A DNA stretch of 64,000 nt from Rhizophagus irregularis (Eukaryota), in the NCBI RefSeq assembly GCF_026210795.1, contig NC_089429.1, positions 4,712,001-4,776,000 of the forward strand, read 5' to 3'. The notes beneath the pieces are model-generated. The model had not been told where the DNA came from, did no database searches, and saw nothing but the letters and a program-made list of their open reading frames with translations. Positions 1 through 58,981 of this stretch are shown here, piece after piece. Made by a program: the position numbers and the translations under genes. Each line of letters begins with the position of its first letter. Position 1 is the first letter of the stretch.

Positions 1-1
1 A

Positions 2-1153
2 GGACCAAATGCAGGTACCTATGTAAATGGGTCTGAAGCACAAATCTATTCAAGAGATATAAATAATGCATTAGCAACTATTAGAGCAACATTTATTCCT
101 ACCCATGATTTAATAGGTGGAGATAAAGCTTGGGGAAGAGCTGGTGCTCGTCCGACAGATAGAGTTGCTCCAGCTACTGCAGATGCTGGTGTTGCTGCTG
201 CTAATAATCATCCTATAGTTTTTCCAGGTATTAAACCTAACCAGGCGCTTTATTGGCTTAGAACACAATTTCCAACTATTTTAGATGAAAAGAAACGTAT
301 CCGTTTTAACAGTCTTTATCAGGAAAATGAGCCAGTTGATGCATTTTATAGAACTGTAAAGAGGGCTGGAAAATTACTAAAACTAACTGATGATCTTATT
401 ATCGACCAGTTCTTTAGAGGTCTTTCGGCTGATAATATTTTTGAAGCAGAAAGGTTTAGTAATCTTAATCCTGATGACTTGGTTAAACATCTGAGAAATT
501 TAGAACGAAGAAGGGCTGAAATGCGCTTGGGGTTACAAGATAGAAATCGACGACTTCAAGCAGATTACAGTGATGTAACTCAACCTCCGTTAGGAAAACA
601 GGAACCTGTCGTACTGACATCAAAGTCATCTGGGGTTACTCAAGAACAATTACAAAAGTTACTTAAGGCTCAAGCTGAGGAACTTACCAAGAATTTTCAG
701 GTGCAATTTAAACAATTACAAGCTCGGCCAGTTCGTAATCCACCAGTCTATAGACAGCAGATTAAACCTGTTCGACCAAAACCACAGAGACGTGTTGTTC
801 AGGATCCTCAGGATCCTGATTGGGATGATGGTTATGTAGATCATGATGTTGGTGATGACCCTGATGCTCCTGAGTGGACTTTGGATGATCATCAAAATGC
901 TATTGATCTTATTATGGGATATAAACGTGGGACGTCTAAAATACTTACAAAACAACTTCAGAAGGCTAAAGATAAACGTGATGATCTGGATTTGGCCCGA
1001 GCAATGAGAAACCTCGATCTTAATGATGATACTATGGACATTGATACTGCGAGTTTTGGTGAAAAGGTAGAATTGAGAGAAAAAGATGGTGATGTCTATA
1101 TGGTTCGTGTTGGGTCAAAAAAAAGTAGGTTCGAGTATCTCAAAACTTCTTAA
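2..1153 (+). CDS. Gag-like capsid protein (5'-truncated by window edge)
   Basis: Frame is open from position 2 to TAA at 1153, upstream of the track's 479 start. It contains LYQENEPVDAFYRTVKRAGKLLKLTDDLIIDQFFRGL, matching the retrotransposon Gag CA C-terminal pattern (LxQ..V..Y/F...F..GL), then a coiled coil and an MDID motif. No CCHC knuckle is seen. Confidence 0.75.
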   Translation, partial: GPNAGTYVNGSEAQIYSRDINNALATIRATFIPTHDLIGGDKAWGRAGARPTDRVAPATADAGVAAANNHPIVFPGIKPNQALYWLRTQFPTILDEKKRIRFNSLYQENEPVDAFYRTVKRAGKLLKLTDDLIIDQFFRGLSADNIFEAERFSNLNPDDLVKHLRNLERRRAEMRLGLQDRNRRLQADYSDVTQPPLGKQEPVVLTSKSSGVTQEQLQKLLKAQAEELTKNFQVQFKQLQARPVRNPPVYRQQIKPVRPKPQRRVVQDPQDPDWDDGYVDHDVGDDPDAPEWTLDDHQNAIDLIMGYKRGTSKILTKQLQKAKDKRDDLDLARAMRNLDLNDDTMDIDTASFGEKVELREKDGDVYMVRVGSKKSRFEYLKTS

Positions 1154-1865
1154 GTCGTCCCCAAATAAGACAGCAGTTAGCTCTTCTAGTGTGCCATTGA
1201 AAGGCAAAGCAACCCCTGTTAAGATTCCTGTGAAAGTTACTGGTAGTAAGTTTACACCTGCAAAAGCTGTTACTAAGAATGACTTATTAAGCCTGTTAAG
1301 GTCTGCAGACTTTAGGAAATTACTCCGTGAGATTCTTCAGGAGGAGTTATTGTCTGCTAGAAAAGTCACAGAGATTCCGGAGGACCTAGTTGAGGAGGAA
1401 CAAGAAGAGGATATCAGGGTAGATGATCCTATGGATATTGACATAGCTCGTTTAGAGAATACTAAAGATCTTTTAGCACTGGATGGGGAGGTTAATGGGA
1501 TAGCAATTCAGTGTTTAGCAGACACTTGTGCTAATGCGTCTTTTATTCAGAGAGAAGCTGCTGAGGAATTAGGGTTGGATATTGACAAGAGTATTACATA
1601 TAACATATCTGGTGCTTCAGGAACAGGTAGGACATTCGGCATGGTAAAGGGAGTGACAATCAAACTTACCCCTGATTATGCTATCACTGAGGACCTTGCA
1701 GTCTTAAGTGGTTACAAGCATAGGGAAATTGGGTTAAGCCGAACGTGTCTGAAACGTTACAATTATGATGTCCATGAATCACGTGAACATATAGCCTTTA
1801 CCTGTGATGGGAAGAATGTTTTTATCCCGATAGTTCCTGATGCTAATCGAGGGGATAAAAAATAA
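1086..1865 (+). CDS. Retropepsin-like aspartic protease, probably expressed as a Gag-Pro frameshift fusion
   Basis: CLADTCANASFI (DTG-type active site), flap ISGASG and C-terminal IGLSRTCLK (ILG-equivalent). Overlaps the gag end in the +1 frame at an A8 run (1117-1124). Stops at 1865 with no RT/RNase H following. Confidence 0.8.
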   Translation: MVMSIWFVLGQKKVGSSISKLLKSSPNKTAVSSSSVPLKGKATPVKIPVKVTGSKFTPAKAVTKNDLLSLLRSADFRKLLREILQEELLSARKVTEIPEDLVEEEQEEDIRVDDPMDIDIARLENTKDLLALDGEVNGIAIQCLADTCANASFIQREAAEELGLDIDKSITYNISGASGTGRTFGMVKGVTIKLTPDYAITEDLAVLSGYKHREIGLSRTCLKRYNYDVHESREHIAFTCDGKNVFIPIVPDANRGDKK

Positions 1866-1890
1866 GACCCTTTAATTCTTCTATTTTTTT

Positions 1891-2982
1891 TTATTCCCAA
1901 AATTTGCGAATTAAGTCAGGAACATCCTCCTTCAACTGGTCAGCAGGTTCCCAAGTAGCCTCAGTGTCTGGATAGCGCTCCCACTTAACCAAATACTGGT
2001 CTTGACCTTTTCTAATGCGATGCCGAAGTATCTGCTCAGGAACAAATCTTTCAGGTTGTCCTCTTATTATAGAGTCAGGTGGAGGCTTTTCATTAATAGG
2101 AACTACTTGCAATTCCTTTCGGGTATATGCACATCTGGATACACCTAATCGACCATGTGGTCCGTTAAGGAGATATGTAGGAGGCTGTTCGGGTGAGAGT
2201 ATCATTTTTTTGATTACACGAATGTTTGGGTTCCATCTTATGTCTCCTGTACGGAATTTTCCGTGAAGTTTATTACCGAGTACTGAGATAGGTTCATCTA
2301 ACTTGACTCTGACACGTGCTCCTTCAGAGAGGAGATCCGTCTTTTTTGACACTTTGGGTGATCCTGTCGGAATGTCTGGGGGATTTCTCTGCCAGAGTTC
2401 ATTTACTTTACTCACTATATTATGGAAATCTTCTGACCATTCCACGGATGTCACCCCGGTTTTCAACTCCTGTGCTACCATTCATTTAAGAAGGGGTTCT
2501 TGGATGGCTTGGATAGCTCTTTCAGCATAAGATTGCTGTTTATGCCTTCCTGGCTCTCCGAACCTCATCATTACCCCTAGGCTGTTCAGGAAAAAATCAC
2601 GTACCTGGTCGTTAGTGAATTCTGATCCGGAGTCTGTCTCCAGTCTGTGTGTTGGTGGCTTAATACGATTTCTTCTGTAGATTTTGACAAACCCGTTTAG
2701 AACTCTATTTGCAGTCTTATCCTTTAGGGGTTCTGCATCAACTCTCTTTCCTGCAACTTCCACCACTACGAGAAAATAGTGGAATCCTTTGGGGTCAACT
2801 GGCATTTCTGCAAGATCTGCCTGATGTGTTGCATTTGGTTTCCATACAATTACCTTTGGGCGTTCTGTTGACTTTTCCTTTAGGGGCTTTTTGTATAGGT
2901 TGTAGTGCTCTTCACCTTTTAGAATTCGTGCTGGTACTCCGGAGAGATTGTAGTACTTATAGTAATTCTCTAAGTGTGACAT
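1891..2982 (-). pseudogene. Polinton/Maverick-type DDE (rve) integrase with C-terminal chromodomain, split by one in-frame TGA
   Basis: ORFs 2482-3018 and 1891-2481 are in the same frame and joined as LLK*MVAQ. Catalytic D (HQADL), D (ETDSGSEF) and E (SYAERAI); GARVRV...WNP...QPPTYLL...YTRKELQVV; chromodomain EQILRHR...YLVKWERYPDTEATWEP. No HHCC finger. Likely ATG at 2982. Confidence 0.85.
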
Positions 2983-3026
2983 ATTACAACAAATTAAAGG
3001 AATGGTTTTAGATTTCAAATCTTAAA

Positions 3027-3347
3027 ATGACACGTTTTTACTGCCTAAAGTGCAAGAAGGAAACTGAGACGGCTAGTGAAATACAAGATATGACTACAAA
3101 TGGGCGTTACCGGCTGCATGGTGACTGCACAATTTGTGGTATGCATAAGAATACTTTTACTGGAATAGACTGGATGATCAAGAAGAAGACTAAGGAGAAA
3201 AAGAAAGAAACCGCTGCTAAGAGACAGCAGACGGCTTACAATCGGCAATGCAAAAAACTTGGACAGAAAATCTTAGATTCTGATGACGCGTGTAAACAGT
3301 GTATTGATAAATGCCTTAAGGAGGCAAAAAAGAGGAAGACGGATTAG
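3027..3347 (+). CDS. Small Cys-rich Zn-ribbon protein (DUF5679-like) with basic tail
   Basis: FYCLKCKKET...TTNGRYRLHGDCTICGMHKNTF resembles DUF5679 (from memory). Lys-rich C-terminus with additional Cys residues. Confidence 0.6.
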   Translation: MTRFYCLKCKKETETASEIQDMTTNGRYRLHGDCTICGMHKNTFTGIDWMIKKKTKEKKKETAAKRQQTAYNRQCKKLGQKILDSDDACKQCIDKCLKEAKKRKTD

Positions 3348-3428
3348 TACTGTCTTCTAAACTTATCTTGATATGCTCTATTCTCAATACCCATTGTTCA
3401 ATTACTTATTTTTTCTGACGGGGAAAGT

Positions 3429-3498
3429 GGCCATAGTTCGGTGGTCATAGTTCGGCGGTCATAGTTCGGCGGTCATAGTTCAGTGGCATAGTTCGGTG
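3429..3498 (+). repeat. Five ~14-bp tandem repeats (GGTCATAGTTCGGC consensus) in the element terminus
   Basis: Read directly. Further GG(T/C)CATAGT copies near 3569 and 3674-3700 (x3), and one inverted near 3609. Confidence 0.9.
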
Positions 3499-5414
3499 TC
3501 CCAGGTATGTAGATAAAGGGTGGTCATAGCTTAAATCGGGTTTTGGAGCCTGAGGGGCTAACTAAGGTGGCCATAGTATTATCATAAGTTTTTCGAACTG
3601 TGGCCAGTACTATGACCGGATATTCTGTCTGATTTTGGCTTTATTCGCGTTTTTATCCACTTTTTAGTAGTCTGGTCATAGTGGTCATAGTGGTCATAGT
3701 AGTTTTATGTATAAGAAAAAATGGATAAAAAAAAGGAGTTGGAAAGTAGTGTGACCAGCCATGGCCACTGTGGCCATGGTGGTAGTATATATGGGGATTC
3801 CTGGGACCTGCAAGGTCCAAATAGGTACTGCGACGGGTCGTTAGACCCAGAGGTGGGTGGTGCTTGCACCTCCCACATCCAGCCCGACGACTAACAAAGG
3901 TACCTTAAAAATGAGATCAGCTTTAAAGTTTGGCTTTAACAACGTGAAAGAACCTAAAAAAAGAAAAAAACTCATTAATATCATTTATAACAGGTTATTA
4001 CATGCACTATTAACCTATATAACACCTACCGAAATGAAAAAAAACACAATTGGCGGTAAATCTTAGCTTTTACAACGAAAAAAAACCTAAAAAAAAAGAA
4101 AAAACACTTGTTAGTGTTGTTTCTAAAAGCTTCGCGTACACCAACAACCTGAATAACACCTACCGAGACTTCGCCAAAGTGGAAAGTAAGAGGTCTTCTT
4201 TAGAAAGGAAATCAAATTAAAGAACCTAAAAAAAAGAAAAAAATTGGTTAATATTGTTTACAAGAGGTTAATACATATACAAAAACTTTGAAGAGGCCGT
4301 TTAAATTAGTTCATAGTCTATATAACCGACACTTACCAATATTTTTTCCAAATGAGAAGAAGGAAGAGTAACGAAATTGACATTAAACTTCCGTTGTGAA
4401 AAGAATCTAAAGTGAAAGAATCTAAAGTAAAAAAAAAAATCGTTAATAGTGTTTTTAAGGTTATTAAACACGGTGTATTAAACTTCACCTACCGAGTCTT
4501 TAAAGAACGAAAAGTCTCTTTTCAAATGATATTAACGTCAAAATCCACAACGCAAAGGACCTGAAAAAAGAAAAAAAAACCTTTAGTGTAGTTTTCAAAA
4601 CAAGACAAAAAAGAAGAAAAAAGAAACCAACCATCGAATATAAACATGATAAACAATGTTTTTAATGAAAACGTAATTAGAAAAGAAATGTAAAGGTTTG
4701 TTTTTATTAAAGGGTAGGGACAAAGAAACCAAAACAGATCGAAGAATTTTTTAAAAAAAAATTTTTTAAGATCGTGTTACAATTGAAATTTGACGCGCCA
4801 CAAAAAAATTTTTCGCCAATAAAATTAGGAGGCGCATGCCCTTGCGACATATCGCGGGTGCGATAAAAAACAAAACCCTTTTTTTTTATTACTAATACTA
4901 ATAATTTACTTTTTAACACTACTAATTTGCTCACTAACTTCATACTTTTTTATTTAATACTAATAATTTACTTACACTAATAATTTACTTTCTTCTTTGA
5001 TACTACTAATTTACTTTCATGTTACTAACATACTTTATTTTATTTTATTTTCTTACAAATTTTTATATTTATGATTATATCAAATTTAGTATTTTATTTA
5101 TGAAATATTGTGTATATTTTTTATATTTTAAGTCAATAAAAAAAATTCATAATTTCACTTTATAAATTGCCTGTTATTACTGTAAAATTTAACCTATAAT
5201 TCCTAAAATATGGCCTAAAATTTGGCTCAAAAATCACAATAATTGTATAAATTCAGGTCAAAAATAGGATAATTATTGAATGAATTACCATGCAATAATT
5301 GTGTGATTTATTGCAATTTTTAGCACAATTATTGTATGGTCAAATATACAGAAATCGTAGTGAATTTAATTGAATGATTTTTCAACAAAAATCACACAGA
5401 CTTTTTTCATAGGG

Positions 5415-6230
5415 ACGTTACTCCCCTTATATTAGGCACTGAACGTAAAGTCAATTATATTTACTTTACGTTACTCCCCTTATATAAGGTACAGAATTTA
5501 AAAATCGGTTAAACTTAAAATTTTATTGCGAAGATATTTCCAAAAATTTTTTTGCAAACACATTTATTCAAAATAATCGATTTATTTAATTAAATTTTAT
5601 TTGCAAATATTAAATTTAAGTCACACATTTTCGATTTTAACGAAAAAAATCACTGTATTTATTTAATGTAGTGATACAAATAAAAAAAACAATAACAATA
5701 AATAAAAAAGATAAATAAATTACAATGATCAAGGAGAAAAATGCTAATAAAAAAAAATGAAATCATAATGGAAAGTAATAGAAGAAGAAAGGGAGTAAAA
5801 AAGAGTAATGAGAAGTGATAGGAAACAAAAAGGAAAAAGAAATGATGGGAGACGAAAGGAGGTGATGAGAGACAAAAAGAAATGATGGGAAGTAAACAGG
5901 AGAGAAAAAGAAATAATGGGAAATGAAAAGATGTAATAGAAATAATGGGAGACGAAGTAATATGAGGTGAGGCAAAAAATAAAAAAATGATCATGATAAG
6001 AGGTTGGGTAATGATAGGAAACCAAGTAAAAAACAAACCATAAAGTAAAAAAAAATGAAGTTAGTAAATAAGATAAAAACGAAATAAAATAAGAAACGAA
6101 ACTATACTGAAAATAAGATTCGATAAACAAATAAACATGACGCGATCATGTGGCAAACATAAGGAGTAACGTAAAGTATTTACCAAAAAAAATTTACGTT
6201 CCGTACCTTACTATATAAGAGAAGTAACGT
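5415..6230. mobile_element. Non-autonomous TIR element with low-complexity interior
   Basis: ACGTTACTCCCCTTATATTAGGCACTGAACGTAAA at 5415 is an imperfect inverted match to TTTACGTTCCGTACCTTACTATATAAGAGAAGTAACGT ending 6230. Inner subterminal copies near 5461-5490 and 6160-6178. Confidence 0.6.
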
Positions 6231-7160
6231 AATAGATCATGTGACTTTATGTTACTTACTTTGTCAATTTCCGTTACTTACTTTCTATATATTCATTAAA
6301 CATCATAGTGATGTGAAATTTCGGTTACGTGTTCTCCAAACCTTTCGTATTTTTTTAATTTTTAATATCCGTCAATAAAATACGATTTCCCTATATACGT
6401 ACAACTAAATATGTTAGAAAACCATATTGGTGCAATTTGCATCCATACTAATTCTTTAATATTAAACGATTAATTAATCGATTAAGAACTTTGGTTAATG
6501 ACATTAATCGGTCTTTAATCAGTTAAAGCATTTTTTTTTGGCCGATTCCAACCTCCAAATAAAAGTACATTTAATTCATAATTTTAAATTTCAATGATTA
6601 ACCGATAATTTTATTGAACCTTGTTTCTATGTTAAATTATTTAATATGCTTTATAATTTTGGTTTAAAATAAACTTCGCCTCCTCACTGCCTCTATCGGC
6701 GCTCTGTAATATCCGTATATTATCGGTTGATAATAAAACTAAACTTATCATACTGAATTCTAACTGAACTGAACTTAGAACTGTCATAACTGAACTTCCA
6801 ACAACGGTCCTTTTTATAATGTTAAAATTTTGGTACAATTCTGTCTTTTCGAACAGAATCGCCATTCGGCTCCCGGCGATCTGGGCACATTTGTTATACT
6901 GTCACCTATATTCAGCCACCTTTCTATCGTTAAGCTTCCGTTTGTTTATCTAATCACTAAATATCTAAAAATAACTAAAAATAACTATACTAAAAAAAAA
7001 GATAAAAATAGATTAAAAAATAAAAACAATAAAAAATAAAAAATATTTATCCCGTGACAATATACACGTAATGCATTTTTTGGTTTAGTACAACATAGTA
7101 CAGAATATACTGTACATAAATAGGATTGAAAAAAAAAGTATTACTTTTTCTAAAAAAATC

Positions 7161-8457
7161 GTGACATAGAAATTTTATGTGAAGATGAAAAGAAATTATA
7201 TGGTTGTAGAGCAATTTTAGCAGCAAGGTCCGAAGTATTTGATAGACTACTTTATAATGGGATGAAAGAAAGTTATGATAATCAAATTTCTTTTTCAAAG
7301 TTAATTCCGCCGGGATGGAAATTATATTAGAATATATTTATACGGGATCGATTAAAGAAAAATCTTTGACAAAAGATAATGCAATTGAAGCTTTTACGCT
7401 GCTGATTATTTTCAATTATCAGACCTTCAGGATTTTATTACAAAAACGGTTATGAATACTAATTTAGTTAAAAATTATTCACCGGAATTACTATTTAAAA
7501 TTACAGAAATAACTCAATTAGCGAAAGATAATGTTTTTCTTATTTATTGGTTGAAACAGTAGCAATTATGTCATTGTAATATTGAAATTTGGTCGATTGT
7601 CTATTACGGGTCTTAAATGTCTTTTGTCTATTACACATGAAAGAAATGCCTTTCGTGACCCCCGAATATGAAGTTTTTTGGTATAGTGCAATTAGCAGCA
7701 AAACAAGTTTCTAATGATGCATTTAAACTTTTTTGAAACGATTGCCAACCTTAGACCAATTGGAGGATTCATCAAAAAATTGGAACCTTTGGTCAAGTAT
7801 ATTGATTTCAGAAGAATTAAACCTCAGATATTAGCCAATTTTATTGAGCCACTAGAAATTGTTTCAAATAAAATAATTTTTAACTTTTATCGATATGTAG
7901 CGTTATCGAATAATTTAAATTTAAGTAACACTCGTGGAAAATCACAAATTAATGAAATCGGCTATGTTTGGGATAAAATCAGCATGTAGATCAAAACTTA
8001 TTATTGAGGATAATGGAAAAGTTGTACGTCAATCTTTATGAACGGCAAAATATCAGAGTTAAAATGTTATTTGAAAATAATGGTATTTTTGAATGGGATG
8101 TTATTATTGAGAAAGATTGCAATGCTTCTTGGGTAGGAGTATGTGCATCAGAAAATTTTGTCATGAATATTTTGCAGGAACTCAATCTACTTGATGGGTA
8201 TTAGACTATTAGGTTCCGATGGTAGTTATAGCCATTCAAGAAATAGAGTACTATACAATAATTATTGCTAATCATTCGGAGATGGAGCAAAAATTACAGT
8301 ACATATAGATATGAATAAGAGAACTTGTTTTTTTACAGTCAATGGTACAAAATATCCAGAAGTATCAGCTTGGAATAATCTATCATCAAAACTTTATCCA
8401 GTAGTATCATTAAAATATCCTGGTCGTATTCGAATTCAACCTCATCAAAAAAGTTAA
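7161..8457 (+). pseudogene. BTB/POZ-SPRY pseudogene
   Basis: Colinear with 10088-11494, but the start is deleted and there are multiple frameshifts and stops. Ends ...YPGRIRIQPHQKS*. Confidence 0.9.
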
Positions 8458-10013
8458 AATGTTTATTGCAAATTCAAATTTTATGACTTTATTATATGTG
8501 TATTTTTTTGATTATGAATTATACCATGTACTAATTAAATTATTAAGCAAGAAAAATAAAATTGTTTATATTCTCGTAATATCAAATTTATTTATGTGAT
8601 ATAGAAAGAATTGTTTCGAACTAGTGTTCCAATCCGTTTAAACGGATAAGGCGTTTTATACATCCTGTATATTTGAATATATAAAGATAAATTCAAATTA
8701 GCGTATCAGATGACTAACGTGCAGTATAATCTGGTAAATTATAAATTTGGCTCGAGTTAATATATATTCTTACCGCAGACTATAATTTCCGATTTATTTA
8801 CACGGATAAACGGATAAGCCGTTAATTCCTGTTCTGTAGCGTCCAATATCTATTAGCTCAGGTTAATTTATAATTTATCAGAATAAACTATAGGGTAGAC
8901 ATCTGATATACTTATTTGAATTTAGCTTGATAATGCAGATATTTGTAAAACCCATAGGGTAGATCGGTCCACAAATATTTTCTACGCCGCCGAAAATACA
9001 CGTGTATTGTCACAGGGTCAGATTTCCACATATTTCCACAATATTCGATGTGGATTTTAAGTGGAAAAAGTTTCCTGATGTTAGTTATTCTTCGATCTCC
9101 TTGATTTTGTACCAATTCAACTTTTAAAGTTGTTGAAGAGAAGTAATATTATTGATTATAGCTGCAGATTATTCAATTTTTTTTTATTTGCAAGACCTTT
9201 ATGACAGTGAATTGTTATAATATTATAAAGTACTAGTACTACGGTATATTATATTCTTTACTTATTTTGTGGAATAATTATGCTATTATGATACTATGAT
9301 GTGCAGAACATTTTAATTATGGACGAAATCTTATATAGAATAATTATTTATATTTAATGATTGTAAATTATATTCACTACGAGTAAAGTTCACAGCAACA
9401 TTTTATAATGTAATTTATTTATAAAAATAAAATTTATTCACCCAACTTTCAAGTGTACTTAGTGTTTTAAAGGATTGTATTATTTTTACGCCAACAGTTA
9501 ATGGTGGATTTAACATATAATTTCTCTTTTAATTGTTATAAAGAAAAAAGATGGTTCTTTAGGATTTTATTTATAATTGCGTAATACAGTTGTTTCTTCT
9601 AAGACATAAAAAAAATTTACTCTATAAAAGTATGCTTCTTAAAATGGTTTTGTAAAATAAGATTTATTTGAGGAGGCGAAGTTTATTTTAAACCAAAATT
9701 ATAAAGCATAAATAATTTAACATATGTATTAAATGTACTTTTATTTGGAGGTTGTAGCCGACCAAAAAAAAAAAGCTTTACCTCGTTAAAGCGATTAACG
9801 TCATTAACCAAAGTTAGTTCTTAATCGATTAATTAATCGTTTAATATTAAAAAATTAGTACGCAAATTGCACCAATATGGTTTCTCACATATTTAGTTGT
9901 ATATAGGGAAATAGTATTTTATTGATATTAAAAATACGAGAGGTTTGGAGAACACGTGACCGAAAATTGCAGCAGCTATAATTCATATGATATGCACGTA
10001 ATGCATTTTTTGG

Positions 10014-10034: not shown

Positions 10035-10087
10035 ATAAATGGGATTGAAAAAAAGTATTACTTTTTCTAAAAAAGATTTCTTGAAAA

Positions 10088-17300: not shown

Positions 17301-19155
17301 GAGATGATACGAAAAATAAGTTAAAAGGATACGTCCTCAAATATGATATGAAGTAGTTAGATCCGTGGTTATGTATTATAGGATGTACCATGTTATTTTT
17401 GGTATCAATAAAGATTTAAGTACTTATTGTGCGAATTATTTTATCAGTATGGAATTTCGCATATAACATTTTTTCTCGAATGTTCTTTATTTTCCAGTTA
17501 TCTCTAATATTCTAGGTAAAAGCCTACGAAGTAAATTATCTTACTAACGAATCTATTCTATTTTTGCTCGTTCCGAAATGACATAATTGTCATCAGGGAT
17601 CAGTTTAAGCTTGTTAACTTGGGCAAATAGACAATAATAGAAGCTCAGGGCATTCCTTCGAAAGACTAAAGCCAAGCCCACATGACACAACTTTGGTGGC
17701 TTCGCTAGGGTTAAATTGAAAAATTGACCTCAGATTTAATATTGATGCTCCGTTCTAGTAGTGGCGCGCGCGATTGTCAGGAGAATATTAATATTGGATA
17801 TCATTTTTTAAAGTAAGCCTTTCTGTTTACTTTGAAAGCCTCGACCCTCTCAACAGCTTATTGTATTTATTATCTTATTGTCTTTATTGTCATCATTTTT
17901 TTAAACTCGGTTAGTTGATCCGTGTAAAAAGGTATACAAACGTAACGAAAATTGATGCATGCTCATATTGATTTTGACTAATCTTATTCTCTTTATTCTC
18001 TTTGCAATAAATTATTACCTGTGTTTATTTGAATTCATCAAATCAACGAAACTGTTTACCGGGATGATTTTGTTTCCTTCATTGTAGATGTCGTCAATCA
18101 GCTTTTCTTATCGAGAAAATATCTGTATAATTATGCTGTTCATAATGAAAGAATAACTGTGGAGATCAACAAAATTAACTCCAATTATATTGCGGAAATC
18201 GCATTACCGCCATATTTTCGTAACAGAGGCGCAGAGAATTCTCAATACAGTAGGATTAATATTCATCGAGCAAATCGTTAATGATGAAGTTAGAAACTGC
18301 CCAAGGGCAAAATGAAACGGAATCGATTACTTCATCTGTCGACGGTTTAGGAACTTCGTTCCTAAAGAATAACTCTCATATCTATACGCAAACTGTAAAA
18401 AAATTTTATCGTAAGAATTATTCTCATAGTAAAACATTAGTATGTGGAAATAATGAGTAGTGGGAATGAATATCCAAAATTCCAAATCATGGTCTAGAGG
18501 CCGGCAGAAGTATGAATTTCTTTTCATGCCTTTATTCCTCTTTAAACGTGCACTACTAATTTAGTTATCCTATTACTTGATAATAGAAAATTAATAAAAT
18601 ATCGTTTTGATGTGATTGCCTTCATACGTTGACCGCTGCATAATTTTCACCTGTTAATTCCTATTAATATAAATCTTATACAACAAATTGTAATGTTATT
18701 AATAATCCACCTGGTCTATAAATCCGAAGGAGAAGTGTCTTTTGAATCTTTTTAACTGCGTGATTAAAACTTGGAGTGTATGAACAATTAAGTCCGCCTA
18801 GATTCCATCTAAAACTGGAGAGATTAGGAACTACGTTTCTAGAGAATAATGACAACATTCTATCGAAAATGTATGCGAAAAAAATTCTCCATGATCTACC
18901 AGTTCGTACAATTGTAATATGGATGGATATTTGGTTCTCTCGTGCGTTCATTGATAATATTTGTATATCTCACTTTGTGAGATAGAGTTGTTCTAGTACT
19001 TATACAGAATGTTAATTATACAATAAACTGCTTAAAAAGACATTAAATGACAAAAACAAGTAAATTTTAAGAAGAAGTAATTTAAGTGCATTTAAATAAT
19101 TGTAAAGATTAAACGGTATAACTCTTGACTGTTCTATTTCATCAGAACGATGCAT

Positions 19156-19421
19156 CGTGTCATCCTTGTGCAGGGGCCATGCTAATTTTTATTTTATTTT
19201 ATTTTATTTTATTTATTTTAAAAGAATGAGATTCGCACTGACTTTGTGTATAGTACAAACTAGAGGTATAAATACATAGTGAGAAAAACTAACTAAAAGA
19301 AAAAAAGCTATCATTAGAAAAACTACGTCGCTAAGATAACTCGCACATAAAGGGTTAAAAAAAACAAGGCGAAGAATAAAATAAAGAAGTAGGGGCCATG
19401 CCAATCTTCCCTGTGTCGTTC
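19156..19421 (-). ncRNA. U6: U6 snRNA core fragment (pseudogene) interrupted by an insertion
   Basis: Minus strand reads GAACGACACAGGGAAGATTGGCATGGCCCCT [insert] ATTAGCATGGCCCCTGCACAAGGATGACACG, matching the universal U6 core. ACAGAGA box is mutated; 5' stem-loop and 3' end are not recognisable. Confidence 0.85.
19187..19390 (-). mobile_element. Short A-tailed retroposed insertion (5'-truncated LINE or SINE-like) with 15-bp TSD
   Basis: Flanked by AGGGGCCATGCTAAT (19172-19186) and AGGGGCCATGCCAAT (19391-19405). Has a (TAAAA)n tail at its minus-strand 3' end. Confidence 0.75.
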
Positions 19422-19534
19422 TTGATTCATGAAAATCACGGGTTTCGACTTTCAGATGACATCATGATTACGTAAATATTTAATTTATATGTTTCCCTTA
19501 ACAGTTCTTAGCAGTAATAAAACTTCAACCGAGA

Positions 19535-20806
19535 ATGTCAGACGTTTTTTCCCTAGTTCCCAGCGAAATTGTAGTCAAGATCCTTAGTTTTCTACCTGCT
19601 AAAGATCTTTGTTCCGTTTCTTTGGTATATTAAGAAAACTACCACTAACATATGTTCCTACTATTGACAACTTATGCTCTGTTTCTTCTTTTTACTGATC
19701 ACAGGTTAACAAGAATCTTTGGTCGTTTATTCAAGATGATTACGTTTGGCATTCAATTTGTATTAATCAATTTCCTACAGATTACGTATCTGAAGAACTA
19801 AAGAAAATGATTGCAGAAGAAGATAACATTGAGGAACAGCATGTAAACGTTGTAAACAAAAAGCTTTATAAACGACTATGTAAAGTTTATTATATATATT
19901 TATATTTTTTTTTTTGCAATCCTAATTGATATTCGTACTGTACATAACAGCCAGGCATATTAGTTTTATGGCCAAAGAACGATGCATCACTTGGTTAGAC
20001 ATTCAACAGGGAGGTGGAAATAATCATCATTGGCGGACCCTCGAAGATTCACAGAGGTAGTAACTAGTGAGCCTTCATTTATCGAACATCTTTAAATATT
20101 TTCATTTTATTTACTTACGTTTATATTTGCAAACAGTGAATTTGGAAAAATTGTGTTTCTGGATCATGTTTGGTGGTTTGATGTATGCGCGAATTCTATC
20201 ATAACTTGTCGTATTTTAGGGCAGTCGCCATTCTAAAAAATTTTTTATAGGTTATGTCAACTCTAAAAGCTGTTCTGCCTGGCATCTATGATATTGTATG
20301 GCGATTAAAAGTTAGATCTCGAAATAATATTCATGATCTAAACTTTTCCGCTACTGTCGTAGAAAAAGTATGTATTGTATGTCTTACACGTTGACATATC
20401 CATAATGTTCTAATTTACGACTCATATAATTGAATTATATTAATAGGTTGAGAATGGAGATGAAGAGACAATCATTCGTGAATACTATCATACTCCACAA
20501 GTCAAGATGTTCTCAAAAATTGCCAGCAAAAACGATTGGGTTGAATATCGTGTGCCTTATAAGTTATTCGTACCTGAGCGAGAAGTGATCGGTGGTAAAC
20601 TAATATATCATGACGTTCGTCTTAAAATTTTTAACTACGAAGGTTTTTTAAAAACTGGATTGGTAAGTTTATTATTAAATTGGTTGAAATGGTTAGATAT
20701 TTTTAATAATAATTTTTTTTCTTATTTGCGTTCTCTTTGAAAGTGGATCGACTTTGTTAGATTAAGAGAACATGATGCGAGCAGAGTTTATGACGAGTTC
20801 GAATAG
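19535..20806 (+). CDS. F-box protein with PP2 (phloem protein 2)-like C-terminal domain, 7 exons
   Basis: Manual GT-AG splicing gives an open frame: MSDVFSLVPSEIVVKILSFLPAKDLCSVSL|VNKNLWSFIQDDYVWHSIC (F-box) ... CITWLD...HWRTLEDSQSEFGKIVFLDHVWWFDV...PGIYDIVWRLK...DWVEY...KTGLWIDFVRL. Confidence 0.8.
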
Positions 20807-26800: not shown

Positions 26801-29761
26801 TTGATTATTTTTTTTTTATGATGGTTACAATCTCATCTAGACATGTACAGTATTTATAATATTACCAGAGTATGTGGTGCGATGAAAATTTTCCAATAAT
26901 TGGAACTGAAGCTGCTGATACTTTAACTCGATCTTCACGCAATTGTGAGCACACTTGGACTTAGAGCAGGTTTATTTGTGATTTATAAGAGTAAATACGT
27001 TAAAAAGTATGAGGATAAGTCTATTAATTATCTAATTTAGAATTATTATTTTTTTTTTTTGAAAAGAGTCGCGAATTTGCATCAGGATCTGTTGCAGCTT
27101 TGACCATGTCTTTTTATAGCGATGTAAAATTCAATAGAGGCTTATAATCTTACATTTAATATATCTAACAGGGTATCTTGCGTCTGGTGCATCTGAGGTG
27201 AGGATATAAAGTAGATGGCATATTATTTGTATATGTTATTCTAACGCTATTAATCATCCATCCGCCCATCTGAAGAAAATTATTGAAAATTTCTCGAAAT
27301 AATTAAGTAATCATTTAAACATTTAGTTATTGATATGATTTTTTTCAAATTAAAATTCTCAAGTTCAATTATTTTAATTCTCATAATCATATTTAGGAAA
27401 ATCTAAATGGATTATTTACGTGATGGACATATCAACCCCTGAATTTCCTTTGATTTAATTATCAAGGGTTATTGTTGATCCTTTTATTTCTCAATAATTA
27501 GATATTAGACTTTTAGTATTAACTATTCAAATAGTTTCCCCCCATTTTACATTCTTATATTCTTTGTTATCCTATTTTATGATGATTTATTGAATTATAG
27601 GATTGTTATTATTAACATATTTTTATTTTATTTTATTTTATTTTTTATTTTATATTATATTACTCTTTTTTTTAGTTATTAGAAAATCTTTTATTTTTTT
27701 AAAATTATTAAAATTATTAATTTATTTTTAGTTTTAATTATTAAATATTTTTATATTTATAGAATTTTATCTTAATTTTGTGAAATGACTATAGATGTAT
27801 AGCTTGAAGAATTTACAAAAAAATTACTTTTTTTCAATACTGTATTAACTCAATCTTTGATTTACCTTTGATGTAACAATAGTTCAATTATTTGATAAAT
27901 TTTTTAATAACATTGTAATTATATTTATAAACTGCAATTTTTAAATATCCGGAAAAAATTCCAATTGATCCGTCCGGCATAAGTCAAAAAAATCTCTAAT
28001 ATTAAATTTTTATATGATATCGTACATAATTTTGATTTACTTAGTTAATGGAACACTCCAATGAAATATGGGCGATTTGTGAGTGGCGCAGAAATATTTA
28101 TTCAAACATGTGATACACACGTGCAGTTACAATTCTTGTACCCGTTATACGCTTTCCACGCTTTCCAGAACTCTAATACATTACAGTCTTCAATCGATAA
28201 AAATATTCTATTTTTGTAAGTACGAAAACGAAGATATAATCCCATTTAAAAATGAATCTAAAATTAACTGTGCCGAGACGTAAAAAAGAGCAGATGACCA
28301 AACCACTTGCAGAATCAACTTGCTGGTAGTTGAATTAGAGAGAAATTAGTTATTCCGTCTATAGTTGAGTTGAGTCCTCTCCATTTTATCTTATAGGTCT
28401 GTGGTCCCGTTACGTTACATTTCCATTGACTGATAGATACGGAAACCAAGTAATTAGTCTTTCTAATCTTGCTGGCAAGTTTTCGAATCCCTCCTCTTGG
28501 ATAACTTCCAATAATTTTTCGTATGAAACATCTGTTCTTAACTTTCCTTTTTTGAATAGAGTCTTATGATAATTTCGCATAAAATTTTGTAACAGTCAAA
28601 ATACAGCGAAAAAGTTCTGATAACAAAATCGAATTGATTTATCATTCCCATTTTAATAAAACCTATGTTTCTAGAGAACCTGATGCCCTTAAATTTTTTA
28701 TTCGCAGCTTATTGAACGTGATAAACCATGGAGACCTTCGGATTCACTACAAATCCAACACATTACTTAGAAGACAAATTCTAGGTCATATCAAAAACAT
28801 CAAATTCTTCTGGTGGTAAAGAAAAACCCGAGAGATTATAAAATTTCTCATCAAATTACATATTATTAATCAAGTTTTCATTTTGAAATATCAAAATTTT
28901 CATATTGTGATATTTTGTAATATAATTATTATTCGACCAACCATTTTTATTTCGTGTTAAGTTAAAAATATAATATATCTTATTGTTTTGCAACTCAACG
29001 AGGATAAAACATGAAAAATTAGCAAGAGAAAAAATGCTAGTGGCGTGACTCGTGAGTTTCAAGCGGGGCAAATAAGATTTATAACGTGAGTTAAGAACAT
29101 GAATGCATCTAGATTCACAGATTTCGTTAAGGACTGAAAGATATTTCTATCGTATTTTACTTTATTTCGTATATGGATAACAGAGTAGTAATGGATCGAT
29201 TCTTATCAATCATGCACACTAATATTCTGATCTTTTGAGAGCATGCGCATTAGCAATTTAGAGGTGAAATCTTAATCCATGATCGTTAAGTTGGATTGTC
29301 AATAAAGATCCTTGATTTTGCAATTATCATTGCGGTCCATTAGTGAATAAATAGATGCGTCAAAAATACGCAATAATTTCGGGACACTCGTTCCAATGAT
29401 TTATAAAATTTTGGGATATTATTTTTTTGCTTCATTTAGACCTGATCATCTTTTCTCATAATTATTCGAAAAAAGAAACATACTTACCCTGTTTACGAGA
29501 ATAGGACAGGAGGAGGTAAAACAAAAAAAATGTGAGATTTTATACCATTTTGCAAAGAGTAGGAGATCCAAAATTTATTTTTTATAAATAGGCTATAATG
29601 AAATATGCTAAGAATTAACTATTATCAAATAGAACAATGCAGAAAATATTAAATTTTTACATTATCTGCTTAATATAATCATTATAAACTTGAGCCAATA
29701 CGCTTTATAGCTCTTGCTTGTTCTTGGAAAATTAAACTTAATAAGATTGAGGAGCAAACGA

Positions 29762-44050: not shown

Positions 44051-44157
44051 TAAAAAAAATACAATGACCAGCAGACATCATAATAAGAAATCATTTTTAA
44101 GTCAAGCAAAATATGATATTCAAATGCGGGCAAGGGTTATCGAACATATAGAGAAGC

Positions 44158-44915
44158 CACTATGTATGGTAAGTACAAAGGGATGGTGCGCACTGCAGGG
44201 TTCACGATCGGGCTAGTTTCTTCCCAATTGCATCCAAGGTTACAGCCTGAACGGAGTCTTGCTTAGTTATTTTGTAGCTAATCTCTTTTTTAATTCTTTG
44301 AAATTTGTAGGACACGCTTAAGGAAATATTGGAGAAGATAACGAAGACACCATGTATGGTAAGTATGAAGGGATGGTGCGCACTGCAGGGTTTACGATCG
44401 GGCTAGTTTCTTCCCAATTGCATCCAAGGTTACAGCCTGAACGGAGTCTTACTTAGTTATTTTGTAGCTAATCTCTTTTTTAATTCTTTAAAATTTATAG
44501 GACACACTTAAGGAAAGATTGGAGACACTATGTATGGTAAGTATGAAGGGATGGTGCGCACTGCAGGGTTCACGATCGGGCTAGTTTCTTCCCAATTGCA
44601 TCCAAGGTTACAGCCTGAACGGAATCTTATTTAGTTATTTTTGTAGCTAATCTTTTTTAAATTCTTTAAAAATTTGTAGGACACGCTTAAGGAAAGATTG
44701 GAGAAGATAACGAAGACGCTGTGTATGCATGGTAAGTATGAAGGGATGGTGCGCACTGCAGGGTTCACGATCGGGCTAGTTTCTTCCCAATTGCATCCAA
44801 GGTTACAGCCTGAACGGAGTCTTACTTAGTTATTTTGTAACTAATCTCTTTTAATTCTTTAAAATTTGTAGGGAACGTTCAAGGAAAATAAGAAGAGAAG
44901 TATGTATGGTAAGAA
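44158..44915 (+). repeat. Four ~180-195-bp tandem units, each a micro-exon plus an intron-like sequence
   Basis: Each unit is GTAAGTA...GGGATGGTGCGCACTGCAGGG...CTAAT...TTT(G/A)TAG followed by a 36-52-nt variable segment. Confidence 0.9.
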
Positions 44916-45104
44916 TGAAGGGATAATGCAAACGTGGCAAAAGAATTCTACAGGATTTAACATTTATTAATTAAATTATGGTATTTAAAATTTAAATATT
45001 ATAAATTATGTAATAATTTATGGATATTTTATATTGTTAACGTCACGAGCACGTAGACCAAATCTTTTTATTGAAAAATTGTACGAGCATTGAATAATTA
45101 TTCA

Positions 45105-46502: not shown

Positions 46503-47053
46503 ATCGATATTCAAAGCACGTTTACATATGTAGGTATAAACGCTCAATTTCCATAAATAGGAATTAATTCACATTCTTTCATTTGCGTTTAGCAATGAAT
46601 ACTTATCAAAATTCGTAGTGAATACAAAATAAAAAAACATCGATCAACATTTTTGCTGATTATATATATTATTGTCTTATAATGTATCCAAAATTATTTC
46701 TTAATTGATCAACTTTTAAGGGATAGTAAAGTTTGTATTTTTAAAAAGCGTATCTAATTTTTCTTTATTTTTAAATATTCTATATTTAGTAAAATGATGT
46801 ACAAAATAATTAATTTCTCTTTTTTGCTTTTTTTTTATGTAAACGTGAAGATGATCGTTTTTTTACTAAGTAGATTTTTATAAAAAATTTTTACATATAT
46901 ATAAAGACAGAAAGCAAAAAAAAAAAAATCCTACCACTTTACTTTAATGCCATTCTTCTCTTTTCCCAATTTCTAGCACAATTTTTCTTTTATACGAAAT
47001 TGTTGCCCTATATAAAACCTATTACTCGAATATAATAATAGAAATAATAAAAC

Positions 47054-48346
47054 ATGGTTGCTTCAAGCTTCATTAAAATATTTTCTATCGTTGTGCTAGT
47101 TGCTCTCAAAGTCTCAGCTCAAAGAGAATGTCCTTCAATTCAAGTCGAAGATAATACCACCGAAAAAAAGAGGTTTATTGTTATTTTTGATAAAGAAGTT
47201 AAGAATGCTGCCGAAGATCATTATGAAATGATGAAAGAATGCTATAAAACACGTGTTCAAAGTATCATTAAAGCTGATGAAAGTAATGATAGTACTGTGT
47301 TTGATCAAAGTGCTATTAGGGATTTTTCTGTTGATGGATCTATACAAGGATATACCTCATATTTTACACCTGAATTTGCAAAAGCAGTTGGAAATATGAA
47401 AAATGTTAAACTTATTGAAGAGGAAAGAAAAGTTAAAGTAGATGTTCCTCAACGTTTTAGTAAACGTTATTTTATAAATAAACGTGCAGAAGACGATGAA
47501 GTAGGACCGAACCTTGATCGTATTGATCAAGCTAAACGTCCGCTGGACGGAAAATTTATTTACCCTGATTCAGCTGGAAAAGGTGTAAATATTTTCATCG
47601 TTGACAGTGGTATTTTACTTACACATGAACAATTTAATGGTCGTGCCAAATTTGGACGTTCTTTCTGTGGAAATTGCACAAGAAATGTTATATATCATCA
47701 TGGTACTTTTGTTGCTAGTGTTGCTGCTGGAAACAGTGTAGGAGTAGCAAGAAAAGCCAATATTATTGATGTTAGAGTTTTAGATGCTGAAGGTGAAGGT
47801 TCAACTGCCAATATGATTGAAGGTTTATGCTTTATAATTAAACAACACAAAAATGGTAAAAACAAGAATTCAGTTGTTAACATGTCTCTTGGAACAGATT
47901 CTGTATCACGAGCTTTAAATCATGTTGTCAAAGAAATTACTGATGCTGGTATTCACATGGCTGTTTCTGCTGGAAATGCATTTTCTGATGATGCATGTAA
48001 AATATCACCTGCATCTGCACCTTCAGCCATTACATCAGGTGCTACCGAAGGAACAAGTGATGCAGTCACAGATTTCTCAAACATTGGAAAATGTGTTGAC
48101 ATTTTTGCTCCAGGTCGTAATGTTTTAGGTGCTGGTATTGGCGATAATGATTCATATAGAGTATCTTCTGGTACCTCTTTTTCTTCTCCACTTGTTGCTG
48201 GTACATTAGCTCTTTTAATTTCCAAGAGTGGTAATAAACCACCAGCTGCATTAACAGAAGTTCTTATTAAATTATCAACGAAAGGAGTTATTACTGGTCT
48301 TAAAAAGGGTTCTCCAAACGCCCTTTTACGTATTCCAGCTCCATAA
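47054..48346 (+). CDS. Secreted subtilisin-like serine protease (S8, proteinase K type) with I9 propeptide
   Basis: Hydrophobic signal peptide; RFIVIF propeptide; triad IVDSG, HGTFVAS, SGTSFSSP; oxyanion SAGN; VDIFAPG. Confidence 0.95.
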   Translation: MVASSFIKIFSIVVLVALKVSAQRECPSIQVEDNTTEKKRFIVIFDKEVKNAAEDHYEMMKECYKTRVQSIIKADESNDSTVFDQSAIRDFSVDGSIQGYTSYFTPEFAKAVGNMKNVKLIEEERKVKVDVPQRFSKRYFINKRAEDDEVGPNLDRIDQAKRPLDGKFIYPDSAGKGVNIFIVDSGILLTHEQFNGRAKFGRSFCGNCTRNVIYHHGTFVASVAAGNSVGVARKANIIDVRVLDAEGEGSTANMIEGLCFIIKQHKNGKNKNSVVNMSLGTDSVSRALNHVVKEITDAGIHMAVSAGNAFSDDACKISPASAPSAITSGATEGTSDAVTDFSNIGKCVDIFAPGRNVLGAGIGDNDSYRVSSGTSFSSPLVAGTLALLISKSGNKPPAALTEVLIKLSTKGVITGLKKGSPNALLRIPAP

Positions 48347-55510: not shown

Positions 55511-56722
55511 AAATTTAGTATCGCTCTTACACTTACTAATATGATTTAAAAAAAAATTTTCGTTTAAAGGGAATGACGGATTATTTTTGGCTCACTTTTC
55601 GTTTAAAGATAATAATAGGTTATGTTACAAAATAATATATTATGATAATAATTAATCAGCAAAAGCCTTTTGTCTTAATAAAGATATAAATATGATGAAT
55701 TGAATTGAATCCAACTTTCATTACTAAATTAAATAAACAAATAGTATTACTAGAATATTGTAAGTTGTTAAAAATTCATCAATGATTAAATAATTTTTAC
55801 CTACTATACAACCTATCATATTGATCCTTCAATAATGTGATTGTTATTTGTTAATAATAATATCTATTGTTTTATATTTGCTCGGTATTTTACTCATGAA
55901 CTATCAGGATATTCTTCAAGAATTTTACGAAAATGGGGATTTTTCTTGCATTAAAAAGTAAATAGAAAGTGAGTATCGGAAAATTAGAGTTTGAAATAAG
56001 GATCATTTTATAGAGTCGCTCATCGAATAGATATGGCCATCATTAATGTCATCCAGATATACCCATGTATTATTGTCTTATACTATTAAATATTTGTCTC
56101 CAACTATAATAATTTTTTTTTCCTACAATAAAAAATTATTAAAAATAATCTCTGAATTCTTTTTTAAAAAAAAGTTTCATTGAGTAAAGAAAATTAGTTG
56201 AATTTTAATTTTTACAAGTTCATTATGTCATGAAAAAGGCAATAAATTTTGCCTAAAAAATATGTTATTGTATTATAATTTCGAAATATTTATATGCAAA
56301 TAAAACTTTATAATCAAAATTGAATTTTTGATTTTCGCTTTTTCATTCGAATCTTCAAATTGGCTCATTTAAACAATAATTTTCAATAAAAGACCAATCA
56401 TCATTACAAGTACGGCAATCGAAATTTTATTTTACTATGAATTTAAAGGTGTTTCCATTTTTTTGAGTTCTATGATGATTGTTAAAATTGGTTTCTTTCC
56501 AAAACATCTTCAAAATTAAATTTGCGGAAAATAACTTTAACGTCATTTGTACCTTTGTAGTTTTTACATCATTTTTTTTTGTCTATATTGTGTGATCAGA
56601 TGATCATCATTTGTTTACAATGTAGAAATTTTGGTGGTTGCACAACTTATTTGTTTAACCGTCTATGGAGAATTTTTTTTTTTTTTTTTTGCATTAAAAA
56701 TAATTTGTTTTTTTTTGCAAAA

Positions 56723-58981
56723 ATGTCTAATATTCGGAAAAAATTAATACAAGCAGTACTTAGTAGAGCATTTACATTAATTGAATATAATATTTACGTT
56801 AACTTTCATGAACAAACCGAATTTTATAAAAAATTCGTTCTTGCTGATAATTCTCTTACAGAAGAAGAAAAAACTGAAGCAATAAGAATAATTAATAAAG
56901 ATCATGACCGAAATAAAATTAAAAATAATAATGGAACAAGAAGGGTTTGTGAAAATTGTAACCAAAAGTGTTTAGCTACATTATATTGTGAATATTGTGT
57001 TCGAAATTATTTAAAATATAATTTTTCAAATTGGACTTCTGGAAATAATGTTATTGATAATTTAATAAAAAATTGTCAAATGGAAACACTTGTGCCAAAT
57101 ATTATTATTGAATGGATTCCATATAATAATTTAGAAAATATTAAATATCTGACAAAAGGTGGATTCTCAGAGATTTATACAGCTAAGTGGATTGATGGAA
57201 GATATAAAGAATGGAATTCTAAGGAAAAGCAATTAAAAAGATCTAAAACTTTTACAGTAATACTTAAAGAATTAAAAAATGTTGAAAATGCAAGTCAAAG
57301 TTGGTTTGAAGAGGTTTGTAAGTTAAAAATATTTAAAGAACTTAAAATTTAAAATTTAATTATTAATAATAAAATTTATTATTTTAAAGGCTAAATCACA
57401 TTTAACTTTAAGCAACAAACTTACATCTATTGTTCAATGTTTTGGTTTAACACAAAATCCATCAAATGGAAATTATTTACTTGTAATGAGGAAGTTTAAT
57501 ATGAATTTAAGAGAATATTTACAACAAAATCATAATCAACTTACATGGAATGAGAGAATTAAAATTACTTTTTTAATTATTAATAAACTTTATTATATTC
57601 ATAAAGAGAATTCAATTCATAGAGATTTGCATTCTGGAAATATATTATATTCAGAGTTTAATGATGGTTGGCGGATTAGTGATCTTGGATTTTGTGGTCC
57701 TGCAGACAAACCATCAACAAGTATATATGGAAATCTTCCCTATATTGCCCCTGAAGTTATTAACGGAAAAGGTTATACTTTTAGATCTGATATTTATAGT
57801 ATTGCAATGCTCATGTGGGAAATTTCATTTGGACAACCTCCATTTATGAATTATGAACATGATTATATTCTTGCAATTAATATCATTGATGGTATAAGAC
57901 CAAAAATTGTATCAGAAATTCCTTTGAAATATAAAAGTTTAATGGAGCAATGTTGGGATGCTAACCCACTAAAAAGACCTGATGCTAAGACACTTAATAA
58001 AAAAATTAATGAAATTAAATCATATTATCAAAATAATTCAAATGAATTACCTCAATTAATAACAAAGTTAGATAAAAAAACAAGCAATATTTTAAGTAGT
58101 AAACCATTTACAAGTAAGGTTCATAAATTTGAAAATCTACCTGAACCAAAAAATGCAACAGAAGGTATGCTTTTTTAATGTTTATTAACTATTTAATTTT
58201 TTTTTCTTTAATATTATAATTAATGATACACTTTTTTTTGATTAAATAATAATAGAAGAACAAAAAGGTAATATAGTAAATTTAATAATGTTATTGTAAA
58301 AATTCTTTAATTAATAAATAAATTGAGATAACCTTTTTTTTCAATAGCATTTTATATCAGTAGATCATATGATTTTAGTCTTTCTGATAATAGTAAGTAT
58401 CTATTAATTTTTATATAAGTAAAATATCATATTGATTGATTTTCATTATAGCTAGTAATCCTAGTAAATCAAGTAGAATTAATTTTAAAGGTACTAATTT
58501 ATTTTTATATTAAAGTTTTATAATAAATAAATACTAATTTATATCTTAATTACTATAGATAATGATAGTAAAGAATCATCCAGATTATTTAAAAAATTGA
58601 AAATGGAGAATGGTAAAAGCCTTAAATATTTAATTCTAATTTTCATTGAAGATAAGAATGAATATTTTATTAAATTTTGATTTATTTTATAATAGTAGAA
58701 GAACAAAATGATTATGAGAGAGAAACAATGCAACAACGATCAAATATTAGTATTAATGGTAAGTAAAATAAATTATTATTTATAATAATGATCGAGTATT
58801 ATTATTCTAATTTATATTATTTATATAATAGATGAAGTACAAGATAATCCAAATCTTCATTCAGAAGAAAAAGATAAAACTCCCAATGGTTTGTTTATAA
58901 TTTAAATATTTTTTTAATAAAATTTTAAAAAATAAAATATATTTATTTACTAATGTAATTATTTCTTTAGACGGATTTTAA
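56723..58981 (+). CDS. Tyrosine-kinase-like protein kinase (Glomeromycotina expanded type), multi-exon
   Basis: N-terminal CENC...CEYC; TKGGFSEIY, VILK, intron 57314-57389, HRDLHSGN, SDLG, GNLPYIAPE, SDIYS, CWDANPLKRP. Several 3' micro-exons whose boundaries and stop are approximate. Confidence 0.88.

Follow-up and report, generated by a model that had tools for sequence, protein, structure and literature searches.

An A-tailed insert bracketed by a 15-bp duplication in a U6 snRNA core sequence of Rhizophagus irregularis

Anatomy of the insert

Does an A-tailed insert in the middle of a U6 small nuclear RNA sequence mark a retroelement that targets U6, or did it land there by chance? The question is raised by a locus within a 64,000-nucleotide stretch of the Rhizophagus irregularis genome (here called the window, to which all positions refer), where a 204-bp insert of 25% GC (19187 to 19390, minus strand) lies between two 15-mers of U6 sequence. 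The insert consists of a 170-nt body that is 50% T, followed by a 34-nt (TAAAA)n tail (19187 to 19220, minus strand) that is composed of 27 A and 7 T residues and includes six TAAAA units. The 15-mers, located at 19391 to 19405 and 19172 to 19186 on the minus strand, are identical at 14 of 15 positions with the mismatch at the fourth base, and the duplication is not extendable by one base on either side. An earlier annotation made from the letters alone (the first-pass annotation) had reported an A-tailed insert between repeats in the U6 core, which is confirmed by the length, the tail, and the non-extendable duplication; the target site duplication of 15 bp that it named is present at that length but is not perfect. 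The 15-mer had two matches in the window against 0.03 expected, and two or more matches were obtained in 0 of 100 shuffles. Two A-rich repeat runs like the tail occur in the window, and a 15-bp upstream repeat accompanies the insert tail only. The best repeat upstream of the second (TAAAA)n run (27620 to 27652, minus strand) is 11 nt, and that run has no similarity to the insert body. When the window was searched against itself, the body had no second copy and matches were restricted to the tail. The body contains no coding sequence, its folding was not significant (z of -0.30), and, in keeping with a fungal origin, a 21-nt motif of the insert had 0 matches in collections of viruses and prokaryotes.

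Public sequencing runs indicated that the insert is not an artifact of assembly. In 14 of the 24 runs listed, from seven studies, 0.93 to 0.99 of the words of 18600 to 20000 were present, where an empty allele would supply at most ~0.82. Four of the 14 runs (three studies plus one more run of study P4) were not flagged as possible assembly sources. The list was ranked by word share and is therefore uninformative on polymorphism. We conclude that the insert is real, that it is found in independent runs, and that its anatomy is established.

The U6 host sequence and its surroundings

Rfam recognized U6 on both halves of the interrupted sequence (41.8 bits, E of 6.8e-9; 24.4 bits, E of 0.0013), each with a score below the gathering score of 44. 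Counted on the Rfam consensus, the two halves span model positions ~32 to 62 and ~48 to 78, and removal of the insert and one repeat leaves a contiguous 47-nt U6 core. The 5′ part of the core (model ~32 to 47), aligned by eye to 19406 to 19421 on the minus strand, contains the ACAGAGA box and has two transitions relative to the consensus, one of which is within the box. The duplication covers the catalytic AGC triad of U6. Its 5′ copy (19391 to 19405; model ~48 to 62) has one transition, at the A of the triad, giving the 5′ half three transitions in all, and its 3′ copy (19172 to 19186) equals the consensus with the triad intact. The 3′ part of the core (model ~63 to 78) follows at 19156 to 19171 on the minus strand, and the complete 3′ half (19156 to 19186) differs at 0 of 31 positions from L003 and at 1 of 31 from L001, two loci of the metagenome scan considered below. 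The placement of the insert in the U6 catalytic core by the first-pass annotation was thus borne out by Rfam on both halves, with the restriction that the core (model ~32 to 78) is all of U6 that is found there.

Neither the U6 5′ stem-loop nor the U6 3′ end was recognizable at the locus by Rfam. A Pol III terminator is absent after the core, the first T4 run being 100 nt downstream, and no B box was found in 18700 to 19600. The flanks did not resemble the 5′ and 3′ parts of the U6 copies at L001 to L003 (P of 0.5 to 0.99), a comparison in which two real U6 3′ ends fail likewise (P of 0.83). The flanks are, however, imperfectly complementary to one another in a telestem-like manner (19416 to 19445, minus strand, and 19120 to 19155; shuffle P of 0.0065, post hoc), and the U6 telestem is imperfectly complementary too. 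The complementarity includes a 7-bp perfect stretch at the place of the U6 telestem. Such pairing could point to a divergent U6-like RNA instead of plain decay, and the host may be either a decayed or divergent U6 gene with internal deletions or a captured fragment. A hairpin upstream was not significant (z of -1.73; 13 of 200 shuffles were equally good), nor was the folding of the computed empty site (z of -0.62). A TATA-like hexamer ~30 nt before the hairpin was discounted, as 249 such hexamers occur in the window, and a sigma-70 scan was set aside as inapplicable to a fungus. We conclude that the host is not recognizable as a whole U6 gene and that the U6 piece is probably a dead remnant.

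One way in which U6 could be truncated at both outer ends is if the entire unit arrived from elsewhere. A U6 5′ piece, an element end, a tail, and a U6 3′ piece might have been joined by template switching on RNA or cDNA, or might have been copied from an interrupted U6 gene and reinserted, in which case the 15-bp repeat would not have arisen by duplication at the locus. Consistent with such a moved or chimeric unit, platypus and opossum have 5′-truncated U6 joined to short ends of LINEs (PMC4476161), and a direct repeat that matches at 6 of 7 positions brackets the unit, by eye and near chance level. The two halves nonetheless overlap by exactly the 15 duplicated nucleotides and rejoin to a contiguous core, for which one insertion is the simpler explanation, and no convincing outer duplication was found. 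We therefore consider an origin elsewhere unlikely.

An F-box gene (19535 to 20740, plus strand; PF12937, E of 7e-7; exons assigned by eye, end approximate) is divergent from the U6 core, with its start codon ~115 bp away, which places the U6 locus in a promoter region. Six RNA runs had a word share of 0.12 to 0.16, a value in agreement with the F-box exons (0.164) and with the insert (0.127) alike. The word share was discarded as a sign of insert expression, as the F-box exons fit equally; those exons probably account for it. Elsewhere in the window, a tandem family of BTB-SPRY genes, all on the plus strand, occupies 7153 to 53684, with intact frames near 10085, 32099, 36650, 39935, 49032, and 52223, an inverted broken copy at 7153 to 8622, and fragments near 35776, 59295, and 63821; the clusters to which these genes belong are most frequent in Mucoromycota. 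GC-richer mobile-element remains lie at 1 to 3021, where a gag-like frame and an aspartyl protease on the plus strand face an integrase core and a chromodomain frame on the minus strand. A tandem array of ~190-bp units that are 87 to 91% alike (44153 to 44924), a subtilase with an inhibitor-I9-like prodomain (47051 to 48346), and a protein kinase gene (56561 to 58178) are also present.

Relatives of the insert and its route into U6

The insert body (19218 to 19390) was searched at 80% likeness in two DNA runs, X7 and X12, and two RNA runs, X15 and X19. The RNA runs yielded 0 contigs, which does not in itself prove absence of expression. In the DNA runs, 6 of 3,068,219 records (X7) and 8 of 2,413,961 records (X12) matched. 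The records searched leave some contigs out, and as the contigs of the insert locus itself are absent from them, U6-bearing contigs are taken to lie outside the search. The matches represent few diverged relatives (81 to 95%) at four other loci in both DNA runs, and they are not due to chance, as 1e-5 to 1e-13 would be expected in a genome-sized search. Most share the last ~77 nt of the insert (19221 to 19297, minus strand), a segment common to three other genomic loci at ~95%, 83%, and 85%, while the T-rich 93 nt of the 5′ part (19298 to 19390, minus strand) are not common to the relatives of the 3′ end. X12 contained a further 50-nt variant piece at a depth of 27.9 and another at 2.3 that is probably an error. 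We conclude that three relatives of the 3′ end of the insert are present in both DNA runs.

The four loci differ in extent and in what follows the match. Locus (a), chained from records 13-12-9 and 7-6-1 by 30-nt overlaps and hence presumably continuous, is ~95% identical over 19221 to 19297 and tailless, and its next 30 letters are not U6. Locus (b), 83% identical over 19222 to 19292, gives way at the same base to an A-rich tail, where its contig ends, and has 2.1 kb of contig upstream in X7 that is unlike the insert. Locus (c) is 85% identical over 19241 to 19280, and by eye its homology extends to the start of the tail on one side and to 19297 on the other; its contig runs ~590 letters further and probably lacks a U6 core, because that contig is among the matching records and both contigs of the insert locus are not. 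Locus (d) is 81% identical over 19295 to 19342. Among the three relatives with a 3′ end, an off-target 3′ flank is therefore shown directly for one, inferred for one, and unseen for one. Locus (a), being tailless, may alternatively be the source locus rather than an off-target insertion.

Two of the three 3′-end relatives leave the match at 19221 to 19222, one into an A-rich tail and the other into unrelated DNA, and thus the 3′ end of the family is fixed. Together with the tail and the duplication, a fixed family 3′ end makes target-primed reverse transcription very likely, whether the insert came by chance, by preference for U6, or as part of a moved unit; on this point the first-pass annotation, which had read tail and duplication as the signature of that process, was supported. 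In such an event, an element endonuclease would nick the bottom strand immediately 3′ of the region of the ACAGAGA box, and the freed 3′ end would prime reverse transcription on the tail of the RNA. Copying would stop after ~200 nt, the top strand would be cut 15 bp downstream, and fill-in would duplicate those 15 bp. The copy would have aged since, as 1 of the 15 duplicated bases differs and the closest relative is ~95% identical; the insertion is moderately old. In light of the T runs and the missing head, the body reads as the 3′ UTR of a LINE or as a SINE, the element being truncated in either case, or as a cellular RNA that was copied in trans. An intact Pol III SINE was rejected, as the insert has no Rfam head, no B box, and several T4+ runs; a SINE in truncated form may still apply.

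Upstream, loci (a) and (c) agree by eye at 12 of 14 letters, a stretch missing from the insert, which has therefore either lost internal sequence or acquired a foreign 5′ part. The insert looks patched in this respect, as might result if a staggered break had been repaired with a template from another locus, such as the 95% relative, and the tail had arisen by microsatellite slippage with no reverse transcriptase involved. That the closest relative is tailless also agrees with repair, but the independent 83% relative passes into an A-rich tail exactly where the insert does, and a long clean duplication with a tail is the signature of target-primed reverse transcription. Repair is accordingly a very improbable origin.

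Our main reading, to which we give a probability of roughly 0.5, is that the insert derives from a dispersed non-LTR retroposon of low copy number, of which it is the 5′-truncated 3′ end, or from an RNA that such an element copied in trans, and that it landed in a U6 remnant by chance. The tail, the non-extendable duplication, and the 3′ end fixed by relatives are those of an ordinary retro-insertion, the first 30 letters 3′ of the closest relative are not U6, and the host is without a terminator. The many T4+ runs in the insert orientation and the lack of a B box in 18700 to 19600 speak against a Pol III SINE. Copy number also favors chance. A 36-nt node (19262 to 19297) occurs at twice the single-copy depth (480 versus ~240 in X7; 54 versus ~25 in X12), which indicates two exact copies only, the insert and locus (a). 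A sibling would share a 31-mer with a chance of 0.94 at 95% identity, 0.48 at 90%, and 0.14 at 85%. The depth and these odds together argue against a young burst at U6 and leave room for older U6-flanked siblings: one of 85 to 90% identity would be missed by the 31-mer criterion in about half of cases or more, and U6-flanked siblings would lie outside the searched records. Moreover, a random hit in U6-derived DNA is itself rare, at 0.0007 to 0.03 per genome if a target of 100 to 500 bp, 1,000 to 10,000 insertions, and 150 Mb are assumed. The duplication sits on the most conserved stretch of U6, and the primer end on the bottom strand supplies about one T, as would suit a nuclease that reads sequence equally well; the L1 site, by comparison, is TTTT/A (PMC4476161). 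If the tailless 95% relative is the source locus, it is not an off-target insertion, and this too weighs against chance.

The improbability of a random hit is what makes preference for U6 a possible reading. The insert would then be an on-target copy of a non-LTR element of RLE type (NeSL/Utopia/HERO) or Tx1 type, whose nuclease reads the U6 core in any context and makes one cut at model position 47/48 and another 15 bp downstream, and which scatters off-target copies too. The insertion site is not L1-like, the 15-bp duplication is in the range of that of reptile Utopia (20 bp; PMC4640811), and L1-Tx1 and R2-Hero families are reported from R. irregularis (PMC11075540). The 83% relative has an A-rich tail and at least 2.1 kb of contig upstream, its flank being unseen. 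Tentatively, then, mycorrhizal fungi might have a non-LTR lineage whose cuts in U6, staggered by 15 bp, fall between the ACAGAGA box and the AGC triad; the insert would be one of its on-target copies, in truncated form, and the 83% relative with a tail would be a longer member. Against preference, no second U6-flanked copy was found among the records searched, which probably exclude U6-bearing contigs; the 3′ flank of the closest relative is not U6-like; and fungal U6 is low in copy number, with a mean of 2.3 per genome (cited in PMC5855946). The scan spans very many genomes, so that rare chance hits get flagged.

A metagenome collection was also scanned for an A-run joined to the U6 3′ half. 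Five loci (L001 to L005) were recovered; none was element-like, and none had a duplication or a reverse transcriptase, which likewise counts against preference. The pattern itself selects the start point of the U6 sequence, and thus the five loci are no evidence of recurrence. L002 (93.8 bits by Rfam) and L005 were rejected as ordinary U6 pseudogenes with a mutated box, and L004 as a 17-nt match only, with no Rfam match. At L001 and L003 the 3′ half of U6 is present, and the 3.7 and 4.8 kb upstream contain neither a 5′ half nor a duplication. Pfam searches found FKBP/PDZ and no reverse transcriptase in nine frames of L001, and CACTA transposase and Piwi pieces and no reverse transcriptase in 3 of the 24 open reading frames of at least 60 amino acids in L003. 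In L001, a complete U6 3′ half (52 to 115) follows an A7 run on a 67% GC contig with an FKBP-PDZ gene. In L003, a U6 3′ half without the ACAGAGA box (4777 to 4880) follows a 9-bp perfect hairpin, downstream of the Piwi fragments and the CACTA transposase. Phytophthora Utopia insertions are likewise without the U2 5′ half, with elements abutting the junction (PMC4640811), but at L001 and L003 no element abuts the junction and small deletions explain both loci equally well.

The first-pass annotation had proposed the footprint of a U6-targeting LINE or SINE. The retro-insertion part of that proposal is supported, and the targeting part is less probable than a chance insertion, given a closest relative outside U6, a host that is a remnant, and no reverse transcriptase parent found. 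It had also held that copies at unrelated targets would argue decisively against targeting. At least one such copy, the 95% relative, was found, but it does not refute targeting, as weakly specific Utopia families have many non-U2 copies (PMC4640811). We infer that U6 was probably not targeted and that a parent element probably exists. If chance placed the insert, nothing about the retro-insertion is unusual, and it would at most mark a small family of repeats that has not been catalogued. If U6 was preferred, the insert would reveal a new target for site-specific retrotransposons, with the first U6-targeting one in the literature searched, and an RLE or APE nuclease of new specificity, directed at a sequence whose conservation extends from fungi to humans. 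Such a nuclease would be aimed at a multicopy conserved site, and the persistence of an element whose target is an essential gene in nearly single copy would call for explanation. No U6-targeting retrotransposon was found in the literature searched; Repbase and the element table of Fell 2025, outside that search, may list one. PMC4640811 (2015) gives only Keno and Utopia (U2), Dada-U1, and Dada-U6 as snRNA-targeting elements, to which PMC4494074 (Fig. 3 legend) adds a Tx1 family at U5.

Comparison with known systems

The insert is most readily set beside 5′-truncated insertions of non-LTR elements and SINEs made by target-primed reverse transcription, for which L1-type hallmarks are described in PMC4476161. 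It is like them in its A-rich tail, long duplication, and short T-rich headless body, and it differs in its (TAAAA)n tail, in a site other than TTTT/A, and in that no parent element was found. Chimeras of U6 and LINE sequence (PMC4476161, PMC6789731) likewise have U6 directly 5′ of the end of a short tailed retroelement. In those chimeras, however, the duplication flanks the whole chimera (PMC4476161), whereas at the present locus the duplication is U6 sequence and U6 resumes after the tail.

Interruptions of U6 are also known in the form of spliceosomal introns, which in fungi cluster near the ISL and the ACAGA box (Canzler 2016, as cited in PMC5855946), as the insert does. Unlike the insert, such introns have canonical splice sites and no duplication (PMC5855946). 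An intron was rejected as an identity for the insert, which starts with A rather than GT and for which no canonical splice, judged by eye, restores the core.

Dada-U6 DNA transposons (PMC3706591, PMC8869645) likewise sit in U6, and by eye the duplication of the insert ends where the 6-bp duplication of Dada-U6 begins. Dada-U6 elements have that 6-bp duplication, no tail, and a DDE transposase, and membership was rejected on the grounds that the insert has a 15-bp duplication and a tail where those elements are tailless with duplications of 6 to 7 bp. Utopia (RLE, NeSL clade) and Keno (Tx1, APE) resemble the insert in hitting a conserved part of a spliceosomal snRNA (PMC4640811). They differ from it in that their target is U2, whereas the insert is in U6, as one copy only, in a remnant host, and with no protein.
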